Part shown: piece after piece, positions 3,888 to 45,894 of the stretch
Layout of the letters: each line of letters begins with the position of its first letter
Numbering within the stretch: position 1 is the stretch's first letter
Virus record (IMG/VR): IMGVR_UViG_3300035126_000631
Span: 10,044 to 74,043 of that record
DNA: 64,000 bases
Strand: one strand, 5' to 3'
Source of the DNA: a virus
The notes under the pieces: model-generated
Seen by the model: only the letters and a program-made list of their open reading frames with translations
Database searches by the model: none
What the model was told of the DNA's origin: nothing
Position numbers and translations under genes: made by a program

Positions 3888-6800
3888 ATGGCGACTTACC
3901 TCGAAGCACGTAATCTGCTGGCACCCTACGTCGATAATGGCGTGGCGGTGACCGATACGACGCGCATCGACCAACGGATCAACGAGGCCCAGCGCCGTTT
4001 GATCGATCACTACAATTTCCTCTCCCGCCGCGAGGAGTTGGAGAAGTCGCCGCTCGTCTGGCAATCGGGTGGCACGACCGGCGTGCCGACCACGGGCGAC
4101 CTCATCCTCGACAACCTCGATGCGACCAAGACGATGATCTTGTCGCTCTGGCGCGAGGAGAACAACCAGTTGGAACTGGCCACCGCGCTGGAGACCAAGG
4201 CCAATTCCTACATCGAGCGCAACTTGATGAATGAAGTCGAGCGGGCGCGTCGGACGACCTTTCAATCACTGGCCACCTCAAACGGGCAGAACACCTTCGG
4301 CGGTATGACCGGACGGATCGGTCTGGAGACGCTCGTCCAATATCGGCTCCCAGAAAGTCGGCTCAAGAGTTACATCAACCAGGCTTACCAGCAGGCGGTC
4401 GATCACTACAATTTTGTCAGCCGCCGCGAAGACAAGGCCAAGACCAGCCTGACCTTTGCCGCGCTGACTTCGGATGCCGCGCAATTCGACTCCCTGCTTC
4501 CAGTCGAAGTAGTCCGGCTTCTTGCGCTTTCCATCATTGCCGCAGACAACGGGGCGGATGGTGCGGGGCTCAAGACACAAGCCTTGGAATTGATCGACCG
4601 CAATGTGACGGCCGACGTGGAGCGGACTCGGCGCGGACAGTCCGGTGAGGAAGGTCGTCTGCACAATGAGCTTCCGGACGGGGTAAAAATCCCGACAGCG
4701 CGGATGACGCAGTATCTCTCTCAAGCAGCTTCGGATGCTTCGCTGCACTACGACTTCTTGGCCCGGCGCGAGGACTACTCGACAGGGATCAAACCAAATC
4801 CATTCACCTTCGAAGTTCGCAAGAAACTAGTCGAATCCTACATTGCCACGGCCAATGCCGCCGCCGAGGTCGCCGCTTCGCTCAAGCAGGAAGCCTTTGC
4901 CCTGATCGAGCGTGACTTGATGGATGATGTCGAAACGGTGCGTCGTGCCGCAGGCGGCACGGAAGGTCAGCTTCACAATGAATTGCCGGAAGGGGTAAAG
5001 ATCCCGACGGCACGTCTGACCACGTATCTCGCTCAGGCCCAGACCGAAGCCTCGGCCCATTACTCTTTCCTTTCCCGCCGTGAGGACTATGCGGGCGGCA
5101 CGACACCGAGTCCTTTCCCCTACGAAGTCCGCAAAAAGTTGGTTGAGTCTTACTTGGCCACGACCAGCGCGGCGGTCGACGCGGCATCGGCTTTGAAACA
5201 AGAAGCCTTGGCCTTGGTCGAGCGCAACCTGATGCAGGAAATCGAAGCGGCCCGCCGAGTGGTTGGCGGCGAGGCGGGACGGCTGCATAACGAATTGCCG
5301 GAGGGCGTGAAGATTCCAACCTCGCGGATGAACGAGTATCTGACTCAGTCGGCCACGGATGCCGGAGCGCATTGGGATTTCTTGGCCCGACGTGAGGACT
5401 ATTCCAGCGGCACCAAGCCGAACCCTTTCCCTTTTGAGATCCGTGAGAAATTAGTCGAGTCATACATCGCGACGGCGACGGCGGCTCCGGATGTGGCGGC
5501 ATCCCTCAAGCAGGAGGCGTTTGCCGTCATCGAGCGCGACCTCATGGCCCAAGTCGAAGCGGCTCGCCGTGCGGAAGCAGGGGAAGAGGGTAAGCTGCAC
5601 AACGAATTGCCGGAGGGTGTGAAAATCTCCACAGCGCGGATGACAACTTACTTGGCCCAAGCGGCGACTGAAGCCGGAGCGCACTGGGATTTCTTGGCCC
5701 GCCGGGAAGATTACTCCAGTGGGACCAAGCCGAATCCTTTCTCCTACGAAGTCCGCAAGTCCTTGGTCGAAAGCTATGTCGCCGGGGCAACGGGTGCAGT
5801 GGAAGTGGCCACAGCGAAAAAGCAGGAAGCCTTGGCCGTCATCGAGCGCGACCTCATGGCGCAAGTCGAAGCCGCTCGCCGAGCCGCCGCAGGGGAAGAG
5901 GGTCGTCTGCACAACGAACTGACCAATGGCGTGGCCATCTCGACCGCCCGCCTGACGCAGCACTTGGCCCAAGCCGCGCTCGACGCCTCGGCCCATTACG
6001 ACTTTCTTGCCCGCCGCGAAGATTACTTCGGCGGCACCAAGCCGAATCCTTTCCCGTTTGAGGTCCGCAAGAAGCTGGTCGAATCCTATGTCGCGGCGAC
6101 CAATGCCGCTCCCGACGTGGCGGCGGCACTCAAGACCGAGGCTCAAGCGGTGATCGAGCGCGACCTCATGTTTGAGATTGAAGCAACCCGTCGCGGCGAA
6201 GCAGGGGAAGAAGGCCGTCTGCACAACGAGCTTCCGGAAGGGGTGAAAGTTTCCACCTCCCGCCTGACAACCTATCTCGGCCAAGCCGCCACGGAGGCTG
6301 GCACTCACTGGGACTTCTTGGCCCGTCGTGAGGATTATTCCAGTGGAACCAAACCCAATCCCTTTACCTATGAAGTGCGGAAAAAATACGTGGAGTCCTA
6401 TCTCGCGACCTCAACTGGTGCGATCGAAGCAGCGTCGGCCCTCAAAGCCGAAGCGCAAGCGTTGATCGAGCGCGACCTGATGACCCAGGTCGAGGCGGCG
6501 CGTCGAGCGGCAGCGGGTGATGAAGGCAATTTGCACAACGAACTGCCCGACGGCGTCACCATCCCGACGGGGCGTCTGACAACCTACCTTGGCCAAGCCT
6601 CGACGGAAATCGGAACGCACCAAGCCTTTGTCCAGCGCCGTGAGGAATACAACGGCACCGTCCCCGCGCCGACTTACGAACAGAAGAAATTGCTCGTCGA
6701 GGCATACCTCGCCACTTCGAAGGGGCAGTCGGACGTGGCCGCAGCCTTGAAGCAGCAAGCGGTCGCCTTGGTCGAGCGTGATGTGATGACCGAGATCGAA

Positions 6801-7836: not shown

Positions 7837-10199
7837 TGGGTAATAAAAGCAGCGCACCGGCATACCCCAAAGCCGAGATCAACCGTCTAGCGGATCAATA
7901 CGTCCGCGACCAGCAAGCCGACGTAGGCCCATACCTCAAAGCCATCTCAAACTTTGGCGATCGGCTCACCAAAAAAGTCGACGACCTTGTCGAGAAAGGT
8001 GCGACCAAACTCGATGCTGAAGAGACGGCTTTACTCGGTCGCCTCGATGACTTCAACCAACGACTTGTCGAGTTCCAAGCGACCGAGAACACGGAACTCC
8101 TCAAGGATCTCGGGGATATCACCGGAGACTTCCGCTCGGCGATGTCCCTCTTGGATGAGACCGACCGCAAGGAATTCTCGACGGCGCTGAAAAACTTTGA
8201 AGAACGTGGAGCCGAGCTTGTCAAAACCTACGACGCACGGGCGACCGCGGAATCTGAACGCGGCTTCACTGACAGTCAGAGCGTTCTTGATAAATACGAG
8301 GAGGAACGCAAAGCCGACATCGCCAAGACAAAAGGTGAAGAGCTTTCGACGATTACCAAATATGGGACTGACTCAAAATCACTAGCTGACGAATTTCAGA
8401 GGAGTGCTGATGGGTTCCTAAAAAGCTCTTTAGATGAGGCCGACCAAAGAGCGAAAGACAGTAAAGACATCACGGGTCGCTTCGACTCTGAGACAAAGGC
8501 GCTGACCGACGAGCTTCGTAAAGACTCACTCAGCAACATCGAGCGCAATACCACCGAAAGGAAATCACTAGCGGATACTTTCCTGTCGATGTCGGGGACT
8601 TCTACTTCCGACTACAATCGCCGCTTGGAGGAAGCCCTCAGTCTTTCACCGGAACGCCTAGCGGAGTTTACCCAAGCGGCCGACTTCATCTCCAAAGCCG
8701 CCCTCCAGACCCGGATGGATATGCTGGCTACGGCAGATCCCCGCGCCTTGGAGCTTTCAGCCATTGCCGACGAAAATGCTGCGGCGCTGATGAGTGGCCG
8801 GATCTCGGCCGATGTGCAGGCAAATCTCGCTCGTTCGTCTGCGATGCGTGCTTTGCAGGGCGGCTTCGGCGCGGGCAGTGAAATGGGTCGTGGCTTGTCG
8901 GCACGCGACCTGGGACTGACCTCCTTGGACCTGATGAAGCAAGGCTCGGAGCTAAACGACGCGCAGCGTCGATTGAACTACGCGACAAGAGTTGAAGGAG
9001 TAGCTAGAGACGCGGGGGCCAATGCGGGTCAATTTCTCGCCAACGACCAGACGCTTCGGCGCAACCAAGCCGCCGATCTTCTCAGTGCGGAGACCGATCG
9101 GAATCGGACTTTCTTTGATGTGAGCGAGCGTGGGCTGGCCAATGAATTGGCGGAAAGAAATCGCGCTGCGTTAAACTACGCCGACCAAAGCCGGATGTCT
9201 TTGACCGACCGGCAAAGGGCTGAACTCGATCAACTCAACAAAGTTGGCGACACGCGACAGGCCGCATTCTTACAAGGACGGCAGGACGCACGCGGGGTCT
9301 TTGATTATCTGGGCCGCTCCCAAGATCTGATGCTTGGATCCAACCTGGCCGCGATCCGCTATGGTGCAGAGCGCACCGACAATACTCTCAACACCGCGCT
9401 GGCAGGGAATCTCGCCAACATCAACACGCGGACAACGCAGAATCTCGGCATCGCCCGCGATGTTTTTGCGGGTGAGAGTGATATCAACCGATTGGGCTTT
9501 GCCGCCGGTCAAGACAACTTGGCCCAGCGCACCCGCCGACAAGCCGACAATCTGACGAACATCTGGGACCGCGACTTCCAAGCGCGGCTTGGTGTTTACA
9601 ATACCAATGTCGGAACTGGGCGTTCGCTCTACGGCACAAATGTCCAAGCGGCCGGGAATATTTACAACACTAGCGCCGGGTTTATCCAAAATATGACTGG
9701 CAACCAGATCAATACGGCTGGAAATGTCTACCAAGGTGACACCCGTGCTCGGGAGAACGCTTTCAATACAATGGCGCAAGTCCGCGGATCGGCGATGGGC
9801 ACCAAGATAAATGCGGCACAAAAGGGCTGGGAAGTCGATCAAGCCAACTGGGCATCGGGGAAAAATAGCGACAACGCGATGTGGGGGAGCCTTGTAAACA
9901 TGGGGGCCACGATTGCCGGGGGAGTCATCGGGACGGCGGCTGGCGGCAACACTATGGCTGGTTTGCAAATCGGCAGCACTCTTGGTGGCATCGCCAGCAG
10001 TGGGATTAGCGGAGGCTCTGGATCGGGCGGAGGCAGTGGATCCAGTGGTGGCGGCAATCCGTTCAGCACGATGGGGATGTTTACCAGCGCGTTGGGGGGA
10101 ATGGGCAAGACCACCGGCTTCGACAATCAGTGGGGGATGTATGGTCGCAACACAAAAGGATTCGGTAACTTCGACTACGGATCAGGAACAGGAGCTTAA
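7836..10199 (+). CDS. internal virion (DNA ejection) protein
   Basis: 787 aa, helical/coiled-coil with a Gly-rich hydrophobic C-terminus (MGATIAGGVIGTAAGG). Start overlaps the upstream stop. Confidence 0.6.
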   Translation: MGNKSSAPAYPKAEINRLADQYVRDQQADVGPYLKAISNFGDRLTKKVDDLVEKGATKLDAEETALLGRLDDFNQRLVEFQATENTELLKDLGDITGDFRSAMSLLDETDRKEFSTALKNFEERGAELVKTYDARATAESERGFTDSQSVLDKYEEERKADIAKTKGEELSTITKYGTDSKSLADEFQRSADGFLKSSLDEADQRAKDSKDITGRFDSETKALTDELRKDSLSNIERNTTERKSLADTFLSMSGTSTSDYNRRLEEALSLSPERLAEFTQAADFISKAALQTRMDMLATADPRALELSAIADENAAALMSGRISADVQANLARSSAMRALQGGFGAGSEMGRGLSARDLGLTSLDLMKQGSELNDAQRRLNYATRVEGVARDAGANAGQFLANDQTLRRNQAADLLSAETDRNRTFFDVSERGLANELAERNRAALNYADQSRMSLTDRQRAELDQLNKVGDTRQAAFLQGRQDARGVFDYLGRSQDLMLGSNLAAIRYGAERTDNTLNTALAGNLANINTRTTQNLGIARDVFAGESDINRLGFAAGQDNLAQRTRRQADNLTNIWDRDFQARLGVYNTNVGTGRSLYGTNVQAAGNIYNTSAGFIQNMTGNQINTAGNVYQGDTRARENAFNTMAQVRGSAMGTKINAAQKGWEVDQANWASGKNSDNAMWGSLVNMGATIAGGVIGTAAGGNTMAGLQIGSTLGGIASSGISGGSGSGGGSGSSGGGNPFSTMGMFTSALGGMGKTTGFDNQWGMYGRNTKGFGNFDYGSGTGA

Positions 10200-41013: not shown

Positions 41014-43371
41014 TTAAAATGGATCATTCGACTCCGGCTCCGCCGTCTCCGGGGTCGGCTTGGTCAGCCGGTATTTGTGGAGCTTGGCCTTGCCGCAGCG
41101 TTTGGCGATCAACTCGACGTTCGGGTCACCTTGGGTCTGGAGTTCGGCGAGGCGGCGTCCGAGGACGCGAACCGGCCACTCACGGGTCAGGGAGACGTTG
41201 TCGAAGACATCGTTGAAGGATTGGTGCAGTTCGACCGCGGTTCCTTCCCACGGTTCGTCGGTGCCACGGCGCTCCCACCAAGCGTTGAGCGTGTCGCGCA
41301 ATTCGGCGGTGCGGCTTGAGGCTTCGATCTTCTCGCGCACTTCTTGGGCGATGTAGCTACGGATGAAGTAGCGGTTGGCTGCGTCGATGTATTTCGGTGG
41401 GATATCCCACGCCTTGAGCCAAGCGAGGAGGGCGGGGAGTTCGGATTCCACGTCCTTGAGTTCATCGACCGTCGGGCCTTCCTCGAAGGTTCTCATAGCC
41501 AGCGCGATGATCTTGTCCTCATTCGAGATGTTGAGCGCCGGCACGGCCTTGATTGACACCGGATCGTCGTTGGCTGCGATGACCACACGGCCGCGCCACT
41601 CGACCATGATGGGGGTCAGGTATTTCTCGTGGTATTTATGGGTGCCGTGGGCGACGAGCTTCTTGATTGCGCTCGCGTAGCGGTTGAGTTGCGCCTCGGA
41701 TTCCGCGGCACGAGAGTCATCGATGATGGCCAGTGGCGACTGGAAGAGGTCGGCGTTGAATCCGTTGCCTTCGCCCGAGACGATCGAGGAGAGATCCGCG
41801 TAGCCGCCCATTGCGGGCTTGAGGAACTTCTCGATGAAGAAGGTCTTATAGCAGTGGACCGGACCGACCAGGATCATGGCTTGGCCCATGCAGAGTTTGC
41901 CACGTTCCGCGGATTCGTAGAACCGTTTGAACCACGCGAGGAAGATGTCGCGGTATTCATCGGAGGCGAAGACGTTGTCGAGGATGGCCGCGTAGCGTGG
42001 GAAGCCTTCGCCCCAAGCCCCGGCGGTCTCGGCCGCTTTGACGATATGGACGTTCTTGGCGGTGTTGAGGTATTTCTTGCCGCCTTCGAACCAAAGTTCG
42101 TTCTTGTTGTAGAGCGACGGTCCTGCACCGTCCACGCGACGGTGTTCGCGAATGAAGGCTTTGGCGCGGTCCATCGGTGACATGGCGGCACCCTTCGGGG
42201 CGCGGTCACTGAACCCGCGGCATTTGAGTTCGCTGGACAGCATCGCGACCATTTCGTATCGCCAAATCCCGTCGTCGGCTTTCATAAAGAAGGTTTTGCC
42301 GTCGTAATATATGTCGTCAAACTGTCCGCTCTTGTTCGCATTGGTGGACGGTTTGGACACCTCTGGTGAGGTGCTATCCCCGTTTTCGGCGGCTAAAGCG
42401 TCATTTGTGCGGTCCTCGGTAAGGGGGGCGGCAATTTGACCCCCTCCTTCTAAACCCGTGGATTTCGACGGGTTCACGCGCCCAGCCTCCGGGTTGAAGT
42501 AGATGAGGGTCTGTGCCTTTCCGGTGTCTTTCCTCATGCACCCTGGCACACGAGTCAGGCGCACGGCCGACATGGCAGCGGGATCGGCACCGAGCGGGAC
42601 GAGGACATCGGCAATCTCGGAGGCTTTCTCCAGATACTCGGCACGGTTTTTAGTATTTACGCGGACGAGAGCGTGAGCCGACTTCGAGCCGGAGGTCGTG
42701 ACCGAGACGATCGGGAGGTTGAGATTGGAGAGCACACGTAGCCATAGTTCGAGATCGACCGAGTCGGATTCGATGAGGAGGTATTCGTAGGCCACGAGAT
42801 TCTCTTCGGCCCGGCGGGACTTCTTGCCGAGGCGCTCGATCGCTTTGAATTGACCGTCGACCGGATTGACCATGATCCATGCGCCCTCTGTGTTGTTGGC
42901 GATGATTTGATCGACGGCCAGATCCGGCACCTTGTCGTGCCACACCAGCTTCCCCTGAGTCTGCTGATCGACGAAAACGATGTTATGCTTGCCGCCGTAG
43001 AGACGACGGAGGAACTCGGAGGTCGAGACATCGGCTGTCGGGATGGGTGAGGAGGCTTTGAAATCCTCGATCGAGAGCGGGCCTTCTTTGGTCAGTTCGG
43101 TCAGACGATCCTCATCCTTCTCGCGCTTCAGTGAAACCTTCGGGCGCGGCTCGATGAGACCCTCGGCCTCGGCGCGGACGTTGGCGAGCGTGTCGACGAT
43201 CTCGCGTGGCTGTGGGTCACGCTGGAGGTGGTGCGTGATCCATTGCTCGATGAAGGCATCGTCATAGGCGTTAGCAACCAGCGCGTGCGCTGCGCCGAAC
43301 ATCCATGTGTGGCATCCTTGGCCGGAGGTTGGGCAGGGGTTGAGTCCGAGTTCTTCAGGTGTAGGTGACAT
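41014..43371 (-). CDS. primase-helicase (RepB-like AEP primase + SF3/NrS-1-like helicase)
   Basis: YLLIESD, TSGSKSAHAL and RLTRVPG primase motifs; degenerate Walker A GPVHCYKT, IIDD and IAAN. Confidence 0.8.
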   Translation of the reverse strand: MSPTPEELGLNPCPTSGQGCHTWMFGAAHALVANAYDDAFIEQWITHHLQRDPQPREIVDTLANVRAEAEGLIEPRPKVSLKREKDEDRLTELTKEGPLSIEDFKASSPIPTADVSTSEFLRRLYGGKHNIVFVDQQTQGKLVWHDKVPDLAVDQIIANNTEGAWIMVNPVDGQFKAIERLGKKSRRAEENLVAYEYLLIESDSVDLELWLRVLSNLNLPIVSVTTSGSKSAHALVRVNTKNRAEYLEKASEIADVLVPLGADPAAMSAVRLTRVPGCMRKDTGKAQTLIYFNPEAGRVNPSKSTGLEGGGQIAAPLTEDRTNDALAAENGDSTSPEVSKPSTNANKSGQFDDIYYDGKTFFMKADDGIWRYEMVAMLSSELKCRGFSDRAPKGAAMSPMDRAKAFIREHRRVDGAGPSLYNKNELWFEGGKKYLNTAKNVHIVKAAETAGAWGEGFPRYAAILDNVFASDEYRDIFLAWFKRFYESAERGKLCMGQAMILVGPVHCYKTFFIEKFLKPAMGGYADLSSIVSGEGNGFNADLFQSPLAIIDDSRAAESEAQLNRYASAIKKLVAHGTHKYHEKYLTPIMVEWRGRVVIAANDDPVSIKAVPALNISNEDKIIALAMRTFEEGPTVDELKDVESELPALLAWLKAWDIPPKYIDAANRYFIRSYIAQEVREKIEASSRTAELRDTLNAWWERRGTDEPWEGTAVELHQSFNDVFDNVSLTREWPVRVLGRRLAELQTQGDPNVELIAKRCGKAKLHKYRLTKPTPETAEPESNDPF

Positions 43372-43388
43372 ATTGAGTGGTGGAGTTA

Positions 43389-44765
43389 TTATTTACGGTA
43401 ATGTTTGGATACGATGGCTTCGGCTCCCAGCGGGAGGTCCGAGGCCCAAATTGGTGGGGTCGACATGATTTCTTCGATCACTTGGCGGTGATCTTCGGCG
43501 TCATATTCATCGACGAGGACGACGACTTCATCGTGGATACGCATGAGGATTTCATAACCAGCGTCTTCCAGTGCCATGCAGCGGTCCATGAAGACATCAC
43601 GGGCAAGCGCCTGCGTGGCATTTTCCGCCAGCAAGCCCCCATACAGCTTTACGTCCATGAGCTTCCCGAGTCTCGGGAGCTTGGCGACGATGTTGCCGGT
43701 GATGCGCCGAACGTCGCGGTAAACGAGTTCTCGTCCGGAGGGTAGGGGAATTTCCAAAGTCTTGTCGTTTGGGTCGGTGGCGATGCGGAGCGCACGATCG
43801 AGCTTGGCCCACAGTGCGGTGATCTTCGGAGACGACTCGCGGTAGGACTGCACAATTTGTTGCGATTCCTCGAAAGATATGTCGAGTCCGGCCAGCATCT
43901 TGGCGACGAGTTGGAACTTCGCCGCACCGCAGCCATAACCAAGACCAAGCACACGGGCCTTGGCGAGAAAGCGCATCTTCGGATCCACTTCCTTGAGTGG
44001 GCGGGGGTCGTTGTATCCCATCGTCGCCCTGGCGTGCGCCTCGTAGATGTCGATACCGGAGGCGATCAGTTTGAGGAGATCCTTGTCGCCCGCGAGGTAG
44101 GGGAGGCAGCGTGCTTCGATCTGGGCAAGATCGCAGATGACGAGTGTATTCCCCGCGGGAGCCTCGATGAGGTTGCGGATATCCACGCCGGCCACTTCTC
44201 CTTTGGGGATATTCTGGGCGTTCCAGCCGCCCCCTCCGCTATCCCGTCCGGTTGTGGCACCGAAGTATTTAAGCTCGTAGCCCATCCGACCGTCGGGCCG
44301 CGTCCGGGCAATCATCGCCTGCACGGTCTTCAAATGTTTGTTGGCCTTACGGTAGTCGCGCACAGCGCGAACCCACGGAAACTTGTCGGCGAACTCCGCT
44401 TCCCATGCCGCACCCTCGGGATCTTTCTCCGCAAAGGACTTCGGTGAGCGGATACCTTCCTTCTCGCACTGGTCGCGGATCGCTTGCAGGGAGAGGGGAG
44501 GATATTCACCACCGATCCAAGGAAGAAGAGCCTCGGTCCGGCGCTTCTCCTCGATGAGCTTGGCTTCCGCGGCCTTGAGCTTCTCCATGTTGACTGGCAC
44601 CCCGCGCATTCCCATCCGGCGCGTCATAGCCGAGATCCGCCACTCATGGTCGGGCATCTTATGGCCATGCTCCTTCCAGAGCATGAAGGTGGCCTTCGCG
44701 TCATGGAGCGCGTAGCGGGCGACTTCTTTTTTGAAGTCGTTGGTCATGTAAGGGCTCTTAGGCAT
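43389..44765 (-). CDS. family A DNA polymerase, C-terminal part (Exo III + polymerase)
   Basis: YALHD, TTGRDS, NAQN, motif A DLAQIEAR, motif B KARVLGLGYG and motif C IHDE. Confidence 0.92.
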   Translation of the reverse strand: MPKSPYMTNDFKKEVARYALHDAKATFMLWKEHGHKMPDHEWRISAMTRRMGMRGVPVNMEKLKAAEAKLIEEKRRTEALLPWIGGEYPPLSLQAIRDQCEKEGIRSPKSFAEKDPEGAAWEAEFADKFPWVRAVRDYRKANKHLKTVQAMIARTRPDGRMGYELKYFGATTGRDSGGGGWNAQNIPKGEVAGVDIRNLIEAPAGNTLVICDLAQIEARCLPYLAGDKDLLKLIASGIDIYEAHARATMGYNDPRPLKEVDPKMRFLAKARVLGLGYGCGAAKFQLVAKMLAGLDISFEESQQIVQSYRESSPKITALWAKLDRALRIATDPNDKTLEIPLPSGRELVYRDVRRITGNIVAKLPRLGKLMDVKLYGGLLAENATQALARDVFMDRCMALEDAGYEILMRIHDEVVVLVDEYDAEDHRQVIEEIMSTPPIWASDLPLGAEAIVSKHYRK

Positions 44766-45000
44766 CGGGTTTCTTCAATACAAAGGGTCTTGGTAGGAGG
44801 ATCGGCCGCTGTCCCGCTTTCCGGCTGGTTGTCTTGCGGCGGTAGCCGATCAGGGCCAGGTCGTCTCCCGACTTCGCGATGATTGGGATGAGCCGGCCCT
44901 GCTTCACGAGGCGCTCGATCTTCGGCATACCTTGGCGTTGTTTTGCTTGGTTGGTGGCTGTTCGTTGCACGACAGACCCGTCTTTCAGTCCGTAGCTCAT
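44758..45000 (-). CDS. basic hypothetical protein inserted within the polymerase locus
   Basis: 80 aa, overlaps its neighbours at both ends. Confidence 0.55.
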   Translation of the reverse strand: MSYGLKDGSVVQRTATNQAKQRQGMPKIERLVKQGRLIPIIAKSGDDLALIGYRRKTTSRKAGQRPILLPRPFVLKKPDA

Positions 45001-45185
45001 CGTCTTACGAAGGTCTGGTCACTCAGCCACATGGCGTTGAGATGCTCGTGAGACATGTCTGCTTTCCAGAAGAAAGCCGACTTGCGTTGGGTTTTCGGAT
45101 CGGGTTCGAAGGTGACGTAGCCATCGTTGTCGTGACCGAAATCCTCCGGTGTCTGCCATCCGCTGATCGCGGTGAATACGCGCAT
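44997..45185 (-). CDS. hypothetical protein inserted within the polymerase locus
   Basis: MRVFTAISGW..., TAATG-coupled to the exonuclease stop. Confidence 0.55.
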   Translation of the reverse strand: MRVFTAISGWQTPEDFGHDNDGYVTFEPDPKTQRKSAFFWKADMSHEHLNAMWLSDQTFVRR

Positions 45186-45682
45186 TAGTCCTTTGTCCAT
45201 ATCATCCCTTTCATATTGGTTCGGGTGTCTTTCTTGATTTTGATTTTGAGCAGTTCGGCCGAGGCTTGGGCCAGACTCCTGGGGTAGCCTAGATAGGCCG
45301 CGAGGTCGGCTGTATCGAAGACGAAGCGAGGCTTCACTGGAGGCACCGTGCCGGACTCGACGAGCGCGTCGAAGAGCGTCAGGTCGAAGGCAGCGTTGTG
45401 CATGATCCAGTTGAGCCCGTCGCACTCGTCCCACGGCGCGTCGAAGGGTGATCCGACATAGGCATCCCCGTCGTCGAAATACATGCTTACCATGTAAATG
45501 TCGGTAGCGCGGGCGTAGTGCCATGCCCCCATCGTGGTGACTGAGGTGTCGGTGTCGTAGTAGCTCTCGAAGTCGATTGCTACGGAAGAGCACTGGGAGA
45601 CTGCGTTTTTCGCGCAAACCCCGCCCCCCAGCGGAGTTGTTTGTGTTTTAATTGTGCAGTCCCCCAGTAAAGTCGTTGTCAT
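45185..45682 (-). CDS. family A DNA polymerase, N-terminal 3'-5' exonuclease part (Exo I + II)
   Basis: AIDFESYY, HNAAFD and FDTA; the ORF ends before Exo III. Confidence 0.85.
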   Translation of the reverse strand: MTTTLLGDCTIKTQTTPLGGGVCAKNAVSQCSSVAIDFESYYDTDTSVTTMGAWHYARATDIYMVSMYFDDGDAYVGSPFDAPWDECDGLNWIMHNAAFDLTLFDALVESGTVPPVKPRFVFDTADLAAYLGYPRSLAQASAELLKIKIKKDTRTNMKGMIWTKD

Positions 45683-45894
45683 AGTTCGTAGCATGGTCGC
45701 GTGGGGTCGAACGCTGCCGGCGGTGGAAGCTGTGAGCGTAGCCACTCGATCTCGGTGAGAAGGTCTCCAGCAAAGAGGCAAAGGTCATCGACCAGTTCCT
45801 CTTGGGCGGCGATTTCGTCAATCAACTGCCCAAGCGTTGTGAAAGAATCACGCGGCCCGAAGTTGATGCGCCCGATGGTGTATTCTGCGTTCAT
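45679..45894 (-). CDS. hypothetical protein
   Basis: 71-aa coupled ORF. Confidence 0.55.
   Translation of the reverse strand: MNAEYTIGRINFGPRDSFTTLGQLIDEIAAQEELVDDLCLFAGDLLTEIEWLRSQLPPPAAFDPTRPCYEL

Follow-up and report, generated by a model that had tools for sequence, protein, structure and literature searches.

A phage family A DNA polymerase divided over two genes within its proofreading domain, with a variable gene island between the halves

The window analysed here is a stretch of 64,000 nucleotides (positions 10,044 to 74,043) of the IMG/VR virus record IMGVR_UViG_3300035126_000631, which is 74,043 bp long and rated complete by CheckV. Family A DNA polymerases (PolA) are normally single chains. 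In this window the sequence of such a polymerase was found in two separate open reading frames (ORFs), here designated N and C, belonging to a string of five minus-strand ORFs that overlap head to tail in the order 71-aa ORF, N, a small ORF (o67), o80 and C. A preliminary description of the sequence had already reported the last four of these, together with their polymerase and exonuclease motifs and an end of N at ..MKGMIWTKD-TAA, and we recovered the same ORFs and motifs. These four are listed below.

45185..45682, minus strand: PolA N fragment (N), 165 aa, with Exo I (IDFES) and Exo II (HNAAFD)
44997..45200, minus strand: o67, a conserved small protein, earlier read as a 62-aa ORF and here extended to the ATG at 45200
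44758..45000, minus strand: o80, 80 aa, a small, basic protein and variable member of the gene island
43389..44765, minus strand: PolA C fragment (C), 458 aa, with Exo III (YALHD) and the thumb, palm and fingers

N comprises a variable N-terminal extension of ~30 aa followed by the core of a 3'-5' exonuclease fold, and ends in the loop ..NMKGMIWTKD directly ahead of its stop codon. C starts MPKSPYMTNDFKKEVARYALHD, in which a loop remnant (MPKSPYM) precedes the Exo III helix (YALHD), and continues through polymerase motifs A (CDLAQIEAR), B (RFLAKARVLGLGYG, with Leu at the 762-equivalent position) and C (RIHDEV). The junctions between the 71-aa ORF and N and between o67 and o80 are ATGA overlaps, the junction between o80 and C lies within the 8 nt GATGCCTAA, and o67 read from the ATG at 45200 overlaps the end of N by 16 nt. 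The ATGA-type overlaps of the preliminary description were therefore upheld, whilst its 62-aa ORF is likely to be 67 aa long and to meet N by this 16-nt overlap and not by the TAATG that had been proposed. Its view of an organized gene string, coupled in translation, as opposed to a simple frameshift holds. The same architecture recurs in ~25 loci of other IMG/VR viral contigs, which speaks against chance or an artefact.

Profile comparisons assigned the two halves to the same polymerase. N matched positions 673-787 of the phrog_17 profile and C positions 804-1231 (E-value for C of 1.8e-76), and because these ranges are consecutive we regard N and C as consecutive parts of one polymerase. C scored 100.5 bits against Pfam PF00476, for which the cut-off is 34.3, identifying it as a family A DNA polymerase, and a profile of fused homologs matched the Klenow, Taq and Bst structures with E-values of 1e-25 to 1e-33. 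The motifs of the DEDDy exonuclease domain (PF01612, DNA_pol_A_exo1), defined here as DxE for Exo I, Nx2-3[FY]D for Exo II and Yx3D for Exo III, were all conserved and were spread over the two ORFs, with I and II in N and III in C. We also checked whether N might carry an Exo III of its own, and no Y-x3-D motif was seen past Exo II. tblastn returned no match to N in cultured phages, and the identity of C to any cultured phage polymerase was at most 29 %.

Scanning of IMG/VR with C and with N returned ~100 loci, which were sorted by tblastn of all four proteins. Where C was at least 79 % identical to that of the window (~25 loci, some contigs being counted twice), N and C were apart in every contig; where C was 67 % identical or less, N and C lay in one frame, 2-9 codons apart, within a single gene of 580-618 aa, again in every contig. 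We analysed 14 members of the split clade in detail, all of which were cut at the same loop, with 350 to 3,450 bp of changing gene content between N and C. Among 5.8 billion proteins, 48 clusters (90 % identity) of stand-alone N proteins were further identified, their members originating from JGI, ENA, Logan and NCBI. HNAAFD was present in all 48 and Exo I in 44, the remaining four probably being truncated, and every cluster (48/48) ended no more than ~10 residues past the loop sequence [NS]MK[GN]. Clade-wide recurrence together with 48 N clusters from four sources excludes misassembly as the origin of the split. In a maximum-likelihood tree of the C region, the split clade was monophyletic (support 100/100) and nested among fused relatives, its sister (96/89) being the fused clade of L043, L046 and L052. 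This position, monophyletic and sister to a fused clade, indicates that the split is the derived state and had a single origin.

The best 150 matches to C among 1.84 billion representative proteins were almost all fused polymerases of 575-650 aa. Apart from the window's own clade, only four C-type proteins departed from this pattern, the unverified singletons P0108, P0137, P0147 and P0155, which begin 10-28 residues ahead of Exo III; no close relatives of these four were found in the viral-contig scans, and a metagenome scan with P0137 gave no match. Two further features of the family were observed. Most N fragments of the split clade carry a low-complexity N-terminal extension of ~30 aa (45584-45682 in the window, the first ~33 codons), which is absent from all fused relatives and from the split member L005. 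P0065, a C fragment of the split clade, runs past motif B (..KAR) into CLAGTTPVLTDQGY.., which resembles an intein N-terminus, and many family members of 750-1284 aa that were matched in 2-4 stretches are probably intein-bearing too.

Alignment with unsplit homologs fixed the break point in the loop between Exo II and Exo III. N and C aligned end to end with fused homologs, N covering residues 1 to ~135, and the difference between split and fused forms was confined to a loop of variable length. Across the break the fused sisters read ..TRDNMKGRHYHLPPG--VIVPKRKRMDNDFKKEIARYALKD, and the split members read ..TRDNMKGMKWTKDS and a stop, then (M/V)PKSPYMTNDFKKEVARYALxD. Only 4-10 residues at the break were non-homologous, and nucleotide homology to the fused gene restarted exactly at the C start codon, which is ATG or GTG in 14/14 members and stands where the fused sister has a Val codon. 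More distant fused relatives have ~14 residues fewer in the break loop, from which it follows that the length of this loop is naturally variable. In the profile alignment, the break fell just upstream of the Klenow ..NQLTFNQIALEEAGRYAAED segment, the stretch itself aligning to Klenow ..NQLTFNQIALEEAGRYAAEDADV. An AlphaFold model of the fused L046 polymerase (26-sequence alignment, pLDDT 91.4) displayed a coil at residues 124-145, the lowest-confidence region of the exonuclease domain, followed by a helix at 146-173 that bears Exo III Y155 and D159. The cut is thus predicted to lie in a coil loop between Exo II and Exo III, just ahead of the Exo III helix. Taken together, the position of the break in alignment and model indicates that N represents the sheet core that bears the carboxylates of Exo I and II, and that C starts at the Exo III helix.

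Both halves are under purifying selection. The family A motifs A (D..QIE), B (R...K....G..YG) and C (HDE), all of which lie in C, were kept in 14/14 clade members, and Exo I, Exo II and the Tyr and Asp of Exo III were likewise invariant in all of them, which argues against a loss of proofreading. dN/dS, estimated by the Nei-Gojobori method over the 14 members (dS ~0.7-1.0), was lowest for C (0.12), followed by the N core (0.19) and o67 (0.21).

The 422-bp gap of the window is fully coding, being occupied by o67 and o80, and in relatives it contains up to ~10 small ORFs, the products of which comprise a membrane protein, phrog_18407 and coiled-coil 'MSETPET..' proteins. Small accessory genes are thus taken up and traded at this site, o67 being present in every member and o80 in most. 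Pfam and PHROGs comparisons of ten such island ORFs of relatives yielded phrog_18407, of unknown function, in two and nothing else. No promoter-like or terminator-like site was found on the minus strand within the gene string; a gap that is coding and variable, and free of such internal sites, amounts to a gene island inside an essential gene. The o80 gene of the window was 95-99 % identical to the copies in L012, L013 and L035, whereas the flanks were merely 71-80 % identical, and L002 combined a C and an o67 near-identical to those of the window with a different o80 allele. This mosaic pattern indicates that o80 has been exchanged between lineages by recombination. Alleles of o80 range from 56 to 80 aa; none of the Pfam and PHROG profiles matched the protein, and a protein-atlas search yielded no more than a weak resemblance to Arm-type DNA-binding domains (score 0.76). 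Every gene abutting C, whether o80 or an unrelated ORF, ends in -DA and a stop (L002-L015 positions 4001-4008; window 44758-44765), because the stop codon sits in the fixed junction GATGCCTAA, (G/A)TGCCTAA, at the C start. This fixed junction marks a sharp right-hand recombination boundary of the island.

The second gene of the gap, o67, is of a different kind. Both small ORFs had been taken as unrelated to the polymerase in the preliminary description, which does not hold for o67: it is a conserved polymerase neighbour, which in the sister clade stands directly behind the fused gene. The 12 homologs in databases and the copies at the loci are all 67-71 aa long and start M-D/S-x-G-L-(L/M)-K-V-F, and the window copy, read from the ATG at 45200 five codons ahead of the earlier start, begins MDKGLMRVF.. 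and is 67 aa long. It lies directly after N in all split-clade loci except those of the L008 type, in which one extra ORF is wedged between the two. The fold of o67, predicted with confidence, comprises two helices and four strands (pLDDT 89). The protein had no Pfam or PHROG match, its model had no significant match in the PDB (Foldseek), in BFVD or in a wide VIA-align search (best Z 3.5), and a protein-atlas search gave only a weak lead (score 0.86), so that constant adjacency to the polymerase is the only clue to its role. In L015 (3297-3500), o67 contains an in-frame stop (Y to stop), and in the L011 type (L011:3240-3632; also L016 and L026-L028) its stop codon is lost and the ORF, 130 aa in all, continues into a hydrophobic tail, so that the conservation of o67 is not absolute.

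We consider it likely that these observations reflect an inherited gene fission of a phage family A polymerase, resulting in a two-chain enzyme with a composite exonuclease site. The preliminary description had offered three options, namely an active site assembled from two chains, rejoining by splicing or ribosomal bypassing, and loss of proofreading. Motif conservation and the L046 model favour the first, and the other two are argued against below. The cut would lie in a surface loop. In the two-chain enzyme, N would supply the beta-sheet core and, on it, the carboxylates of Exo I and Exo II, and C would supply the long Exo III Tyr/Asp helix together with the whole polymerase domain. Both chains would be made from one mRNA by coupled translation and would then associate non-covalently, with N packing onto the first helix of C. 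Their association would rebuild a proofreading polymerase in which the exonuclease active site spans two polypeptides.

On this reading the fission arose once, in the ancestor of the clade, at a time when o67 already stood right behind the fused gene. The fused sisters carry a homolog of o67 (45-49 % identity) directly after the polymerase, and in L046 the polymerase TGA overlaps the o67 ATG (ATGA coupling). As o67 follows the fused polymerase in the sisters and follows N in the split clade, the C part and o67, along with the genes behind it, have in effect been swapped. A tandem duplication of the C-o67 segment followed by two (reciprocal) deletions would be a plausible route to this arrangement. 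The only trace of such a route is the 5 nt ATGAA, representing the last two codons of the fused polymerase, which is also present ahead of the o67 ATG in most split members; as a sign of duplication and deletion it is suggestive and no more. Comparison of the islands with the fused sister loci by tblastx revealed no relic of polymerase N or C sequence, only o67 being matched. In the fused sisters (L043:6009-7556, L046:6035-7372 and L052:6035-7576), the gene after o67 looks like a cytosine-C5 DNA methyltransferase when its translation is read by eye, and the window has no methyltransferase-like gene at the corresponding place.

Several points weigh against the two-chain reading. N alone scored 18.7 bits against PF01612, under the cut-off of 23.6, in keeping with a truncated domain. 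The dN/dS of the N core (0.19) is somewhat above the 0.12 of the same region in fused relatives, although dS is saturated in these, where the C region stands at 0.10. We infer both the association of N with C and the survival of exonuclease activity, and the rearrangement route set out above is conjecture.

The best of the alternatives, which we nonetheless regard as improbable, is that proofreading has been lost, C acting as an exonuclease-deficient polymerase and N being kept for another purpose, e.g. to prop up the structure, to bind nucleic acids as a stand-alone protein or to regulate. That N without Exo III would probably be inactive alone, that its dN/dS is above that of C and that most N fragments have gained a low-complexity N-terminal extension would all suit such a loss. 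However, the Exo I, II and III residues are invariant in 14 diverged members, and Exo II across all 48 clusters, at a dS of ~0.7-1.0, which is long enough for disuse to erode catalytic residues on either chain. The Tyr and Asp of Exo III, moreover, are also kept on C.

We see less room for a split of no long-term functional meaning, produced when a homing endonuclease or other mobile cassette inserted recently ('genes in pieces') or through faulty assembly or sequencing. The hypervariable, recombinogenic nature of the island and the known splitting of T4-like phage genes by free-standing homing endonucleases (PMC2988022) would suit this, but no HNH, GIY-YIG, LAGLIDADG or similar endonuclease domain was identified by Pfam or PHROGs in o67, o80 or the ten island ORFs of relatives, although remote homology could escape such profiles. 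Both versions also conflict with a split common to a diverged, monophyletic clade with dS near 1, and dozens of independent assemblies from four sources speak against an artefact.

It is least credible that the halves are rejoined covalently, whether at the RNA level (splicing of an intron that contains ORFs), during translation (ribosomal bypassing) or at the protein level (trans-splicing), even though phage polymerase genes often carry introns and inteins, relatives of this family contain apparent inteins (P0065 and the long proteins matched in several stretches) and a GAC-TAA take-off codon is present in the window: there was no Rfam match in 44300-45700 at E up to 1, and overlapping ORFs, including an o67 under purifying selection, fill all 422 bp and leave no non-coding DNA for an intron; bypassing of the T4 gene 60 type relies on a take-off codon and a matching landing codon, both conserved, on either side of a short gap that is non-coding, whereas the last codon of N encodes D, S, W or L depending on the member, leaving no conserved take-off, and the gap is coding and 350-3,450 nt long; split inteins consist of an N-side half of ~100 aa and a C-side half of ~35 aa, with splice-junction residues ('fractured genes', PMC2677866), and neither N nor C has extra residues able to form such halves; and C has a conserved ATG or GTG start codon. 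With Rfam empty and no extra residues at the break, our results agree with the preliminary description that intron and intein hallmarks are lacking here. A -1 frameshift fusing N to o67 was also considered and rejected, as the sequence lacks a slippery heptamer and o67 is separated from N in the L008-type loci (L008, L037 and L038).

When 242 loci of this PolA family were screened for genes broken between the N and the C part, a second fission came to light, in four marine contigs from four samples (L200:4265-6189, L204:2219-4140, L211:1352-3285 and L213:5522-7458). The marine N' is 92-93 aa long and contains Exo I (LDFET) and Exo II (HNASFD), and its TGA stop overlaps the ATG of C' (GTATGA). 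The marine C' is 548-552 aa long, starts M(R/S)..KKL(E/D)V.W.CSADM and contains Exo III, the rest of the exonuclease domain and the polymerase. Fused sisters of these contigs (e.g. L230) read straight through the same position as ..IIPQNIKVEWECSADM. The marine fission is independent of that in the window's clade, has no island and lies one loop earlier, again inside the exonuclease domain. That a second, island-free fission exists suggests a general weak point in the stretch from Exo II to Exo III. We think it doubtful, on the other hand, that a cut in the proofreading domain is a recurrent selected state of this uncultured PolA family (two lineages, possibly with P0108, P0137, P0147 and P0155), a separate chain for Exo I and II letting the phage tune proofreading against polymerisation through subunit stoichiometry or timing, or, alternatively, that o67, which keeps its place behind whichever polymerase ORF comes before it, is an accessory or assembly subunit of the polymerase.

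Fission of PolA was first reported in 2023, in S-SBP1-like cyanophages of the T7 type, at the boundary between exonuclease and polymerase (Czernecki et al. 2023, PMC10201439). In these S-SBP1/S-TIP37-like phages, as in the window, PolA is encoded by two genes, for which fission and not programmed frameshifting was proposed and non-covalent reassembly predicted (PMC10201439). In S-TIP37 (MH540083), however, 17A holds an Exo III of its own (DYCVQD) and overlaps 17B with no gene between them, whereas the cut described here runs within the exonuclease domain, leaves Exo III to the polymerase chain and is occupied by a gene island, in the window of two genes (422 bp), placing it outside the S-SBP1 type. 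The layout in LUZ24-like phages (Bruynoghevirus; NC_010325; PMC3890496) is strikingly like the present island, with an exonuclease piece of ~170 aa (gp25), then ~2.3 kb with eight small genes, then 'part II' (gp34). In contrast to N, gp25 includes Exo III (EYCLQD) and therefore represents the whole exonuclease domain; LUZ24 belongs to another PolA subfamily, making this an independent event, and two further polymerase pieces in its genome flank a gene for endonuclease VII. In the OM43 phages MEP401 and MEP402 (PMC10580990), PolA is likewise encoded by two ORFs, which flank a small unknown ORF, and the authors guessed an intron; their Pfam mapping, however, puts the cut inside the polymerase domain, ORF13 comprising the exonuclease and an N-terminal part of the polymerase.

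Among other polymerases, DNAP-N and DNAP-C of PhiKZ (PMC13648687) provide a replicative phage polymerase that is split within a domain and for which a stable 1:1 complex has been shown, and within-domain splits can therefore work; that enzyme belongs to family B, is cut in the palm domain and is encoded by two genes far apart. In the 'genes in pieces' of T4-like phages (PMC2988022), mobile DNA likewise fractures essential phage genes with function being kept, although these cases concern family B and involve recognisable homing endonucleases, of which none was found here. None of the papers searched describes a PolA that is cut between Exo II and Exo III. The known PolA fissions (S-SBP1/S-TIP37-, LUZ24- and MEP401-like) cut elsewhere, and we judge a fission inside the proofreading domain with an embedded variable island to be a new form of an event already known.

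The cut in the window runs through a catalytic exonuclease domain and has persisted at dS near 1 with all catalytic residues intact, which implies an active site built from two polypeptides in a replicative enzyme. For protein engineering, it would offer a natural split site, tested by evolution, in a Klenow-type fold. It also carries a warning for annotation, in that PolA calls lacking an exonuclease and stand-alone hypothetical proteins of ~160 aa may be halves of one enzyme. Finally, it indicates that a gene island is able to live inside an essential gene.

The preliminary description had further associated the Leu at the 762-equivalent position of motif B with temperate phages. The residue was read correctly, and the association is a published correlation (PMC6302109); it says little here, because no PF00589 tyrosine integrase was found in the 74-kb genome. 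Three further features flank the split polymerase gene.

43380..43391, minus strand: junction motif TAATAACTCCAC, which includes the C stop codon and lies between C and the primase start
41014..43371, minus strand: primase-like protein with DUF5906, 785 aa (phrog_2597, PF19263)
45679..45894, minus strand: conserved upstream ORF of 71 aa (MNAEYTIGRINFGPRDSF..), the TGA stop of which overlaps the ATG of N

No copy of TAATAACTCCAC was found between N and C. The primase-like gene starts 17 nt after C, and at the other end of the string the 71-aa upstream ORF has a syntenic counterpart in relatives, located ahead of the fused polymerase gene.

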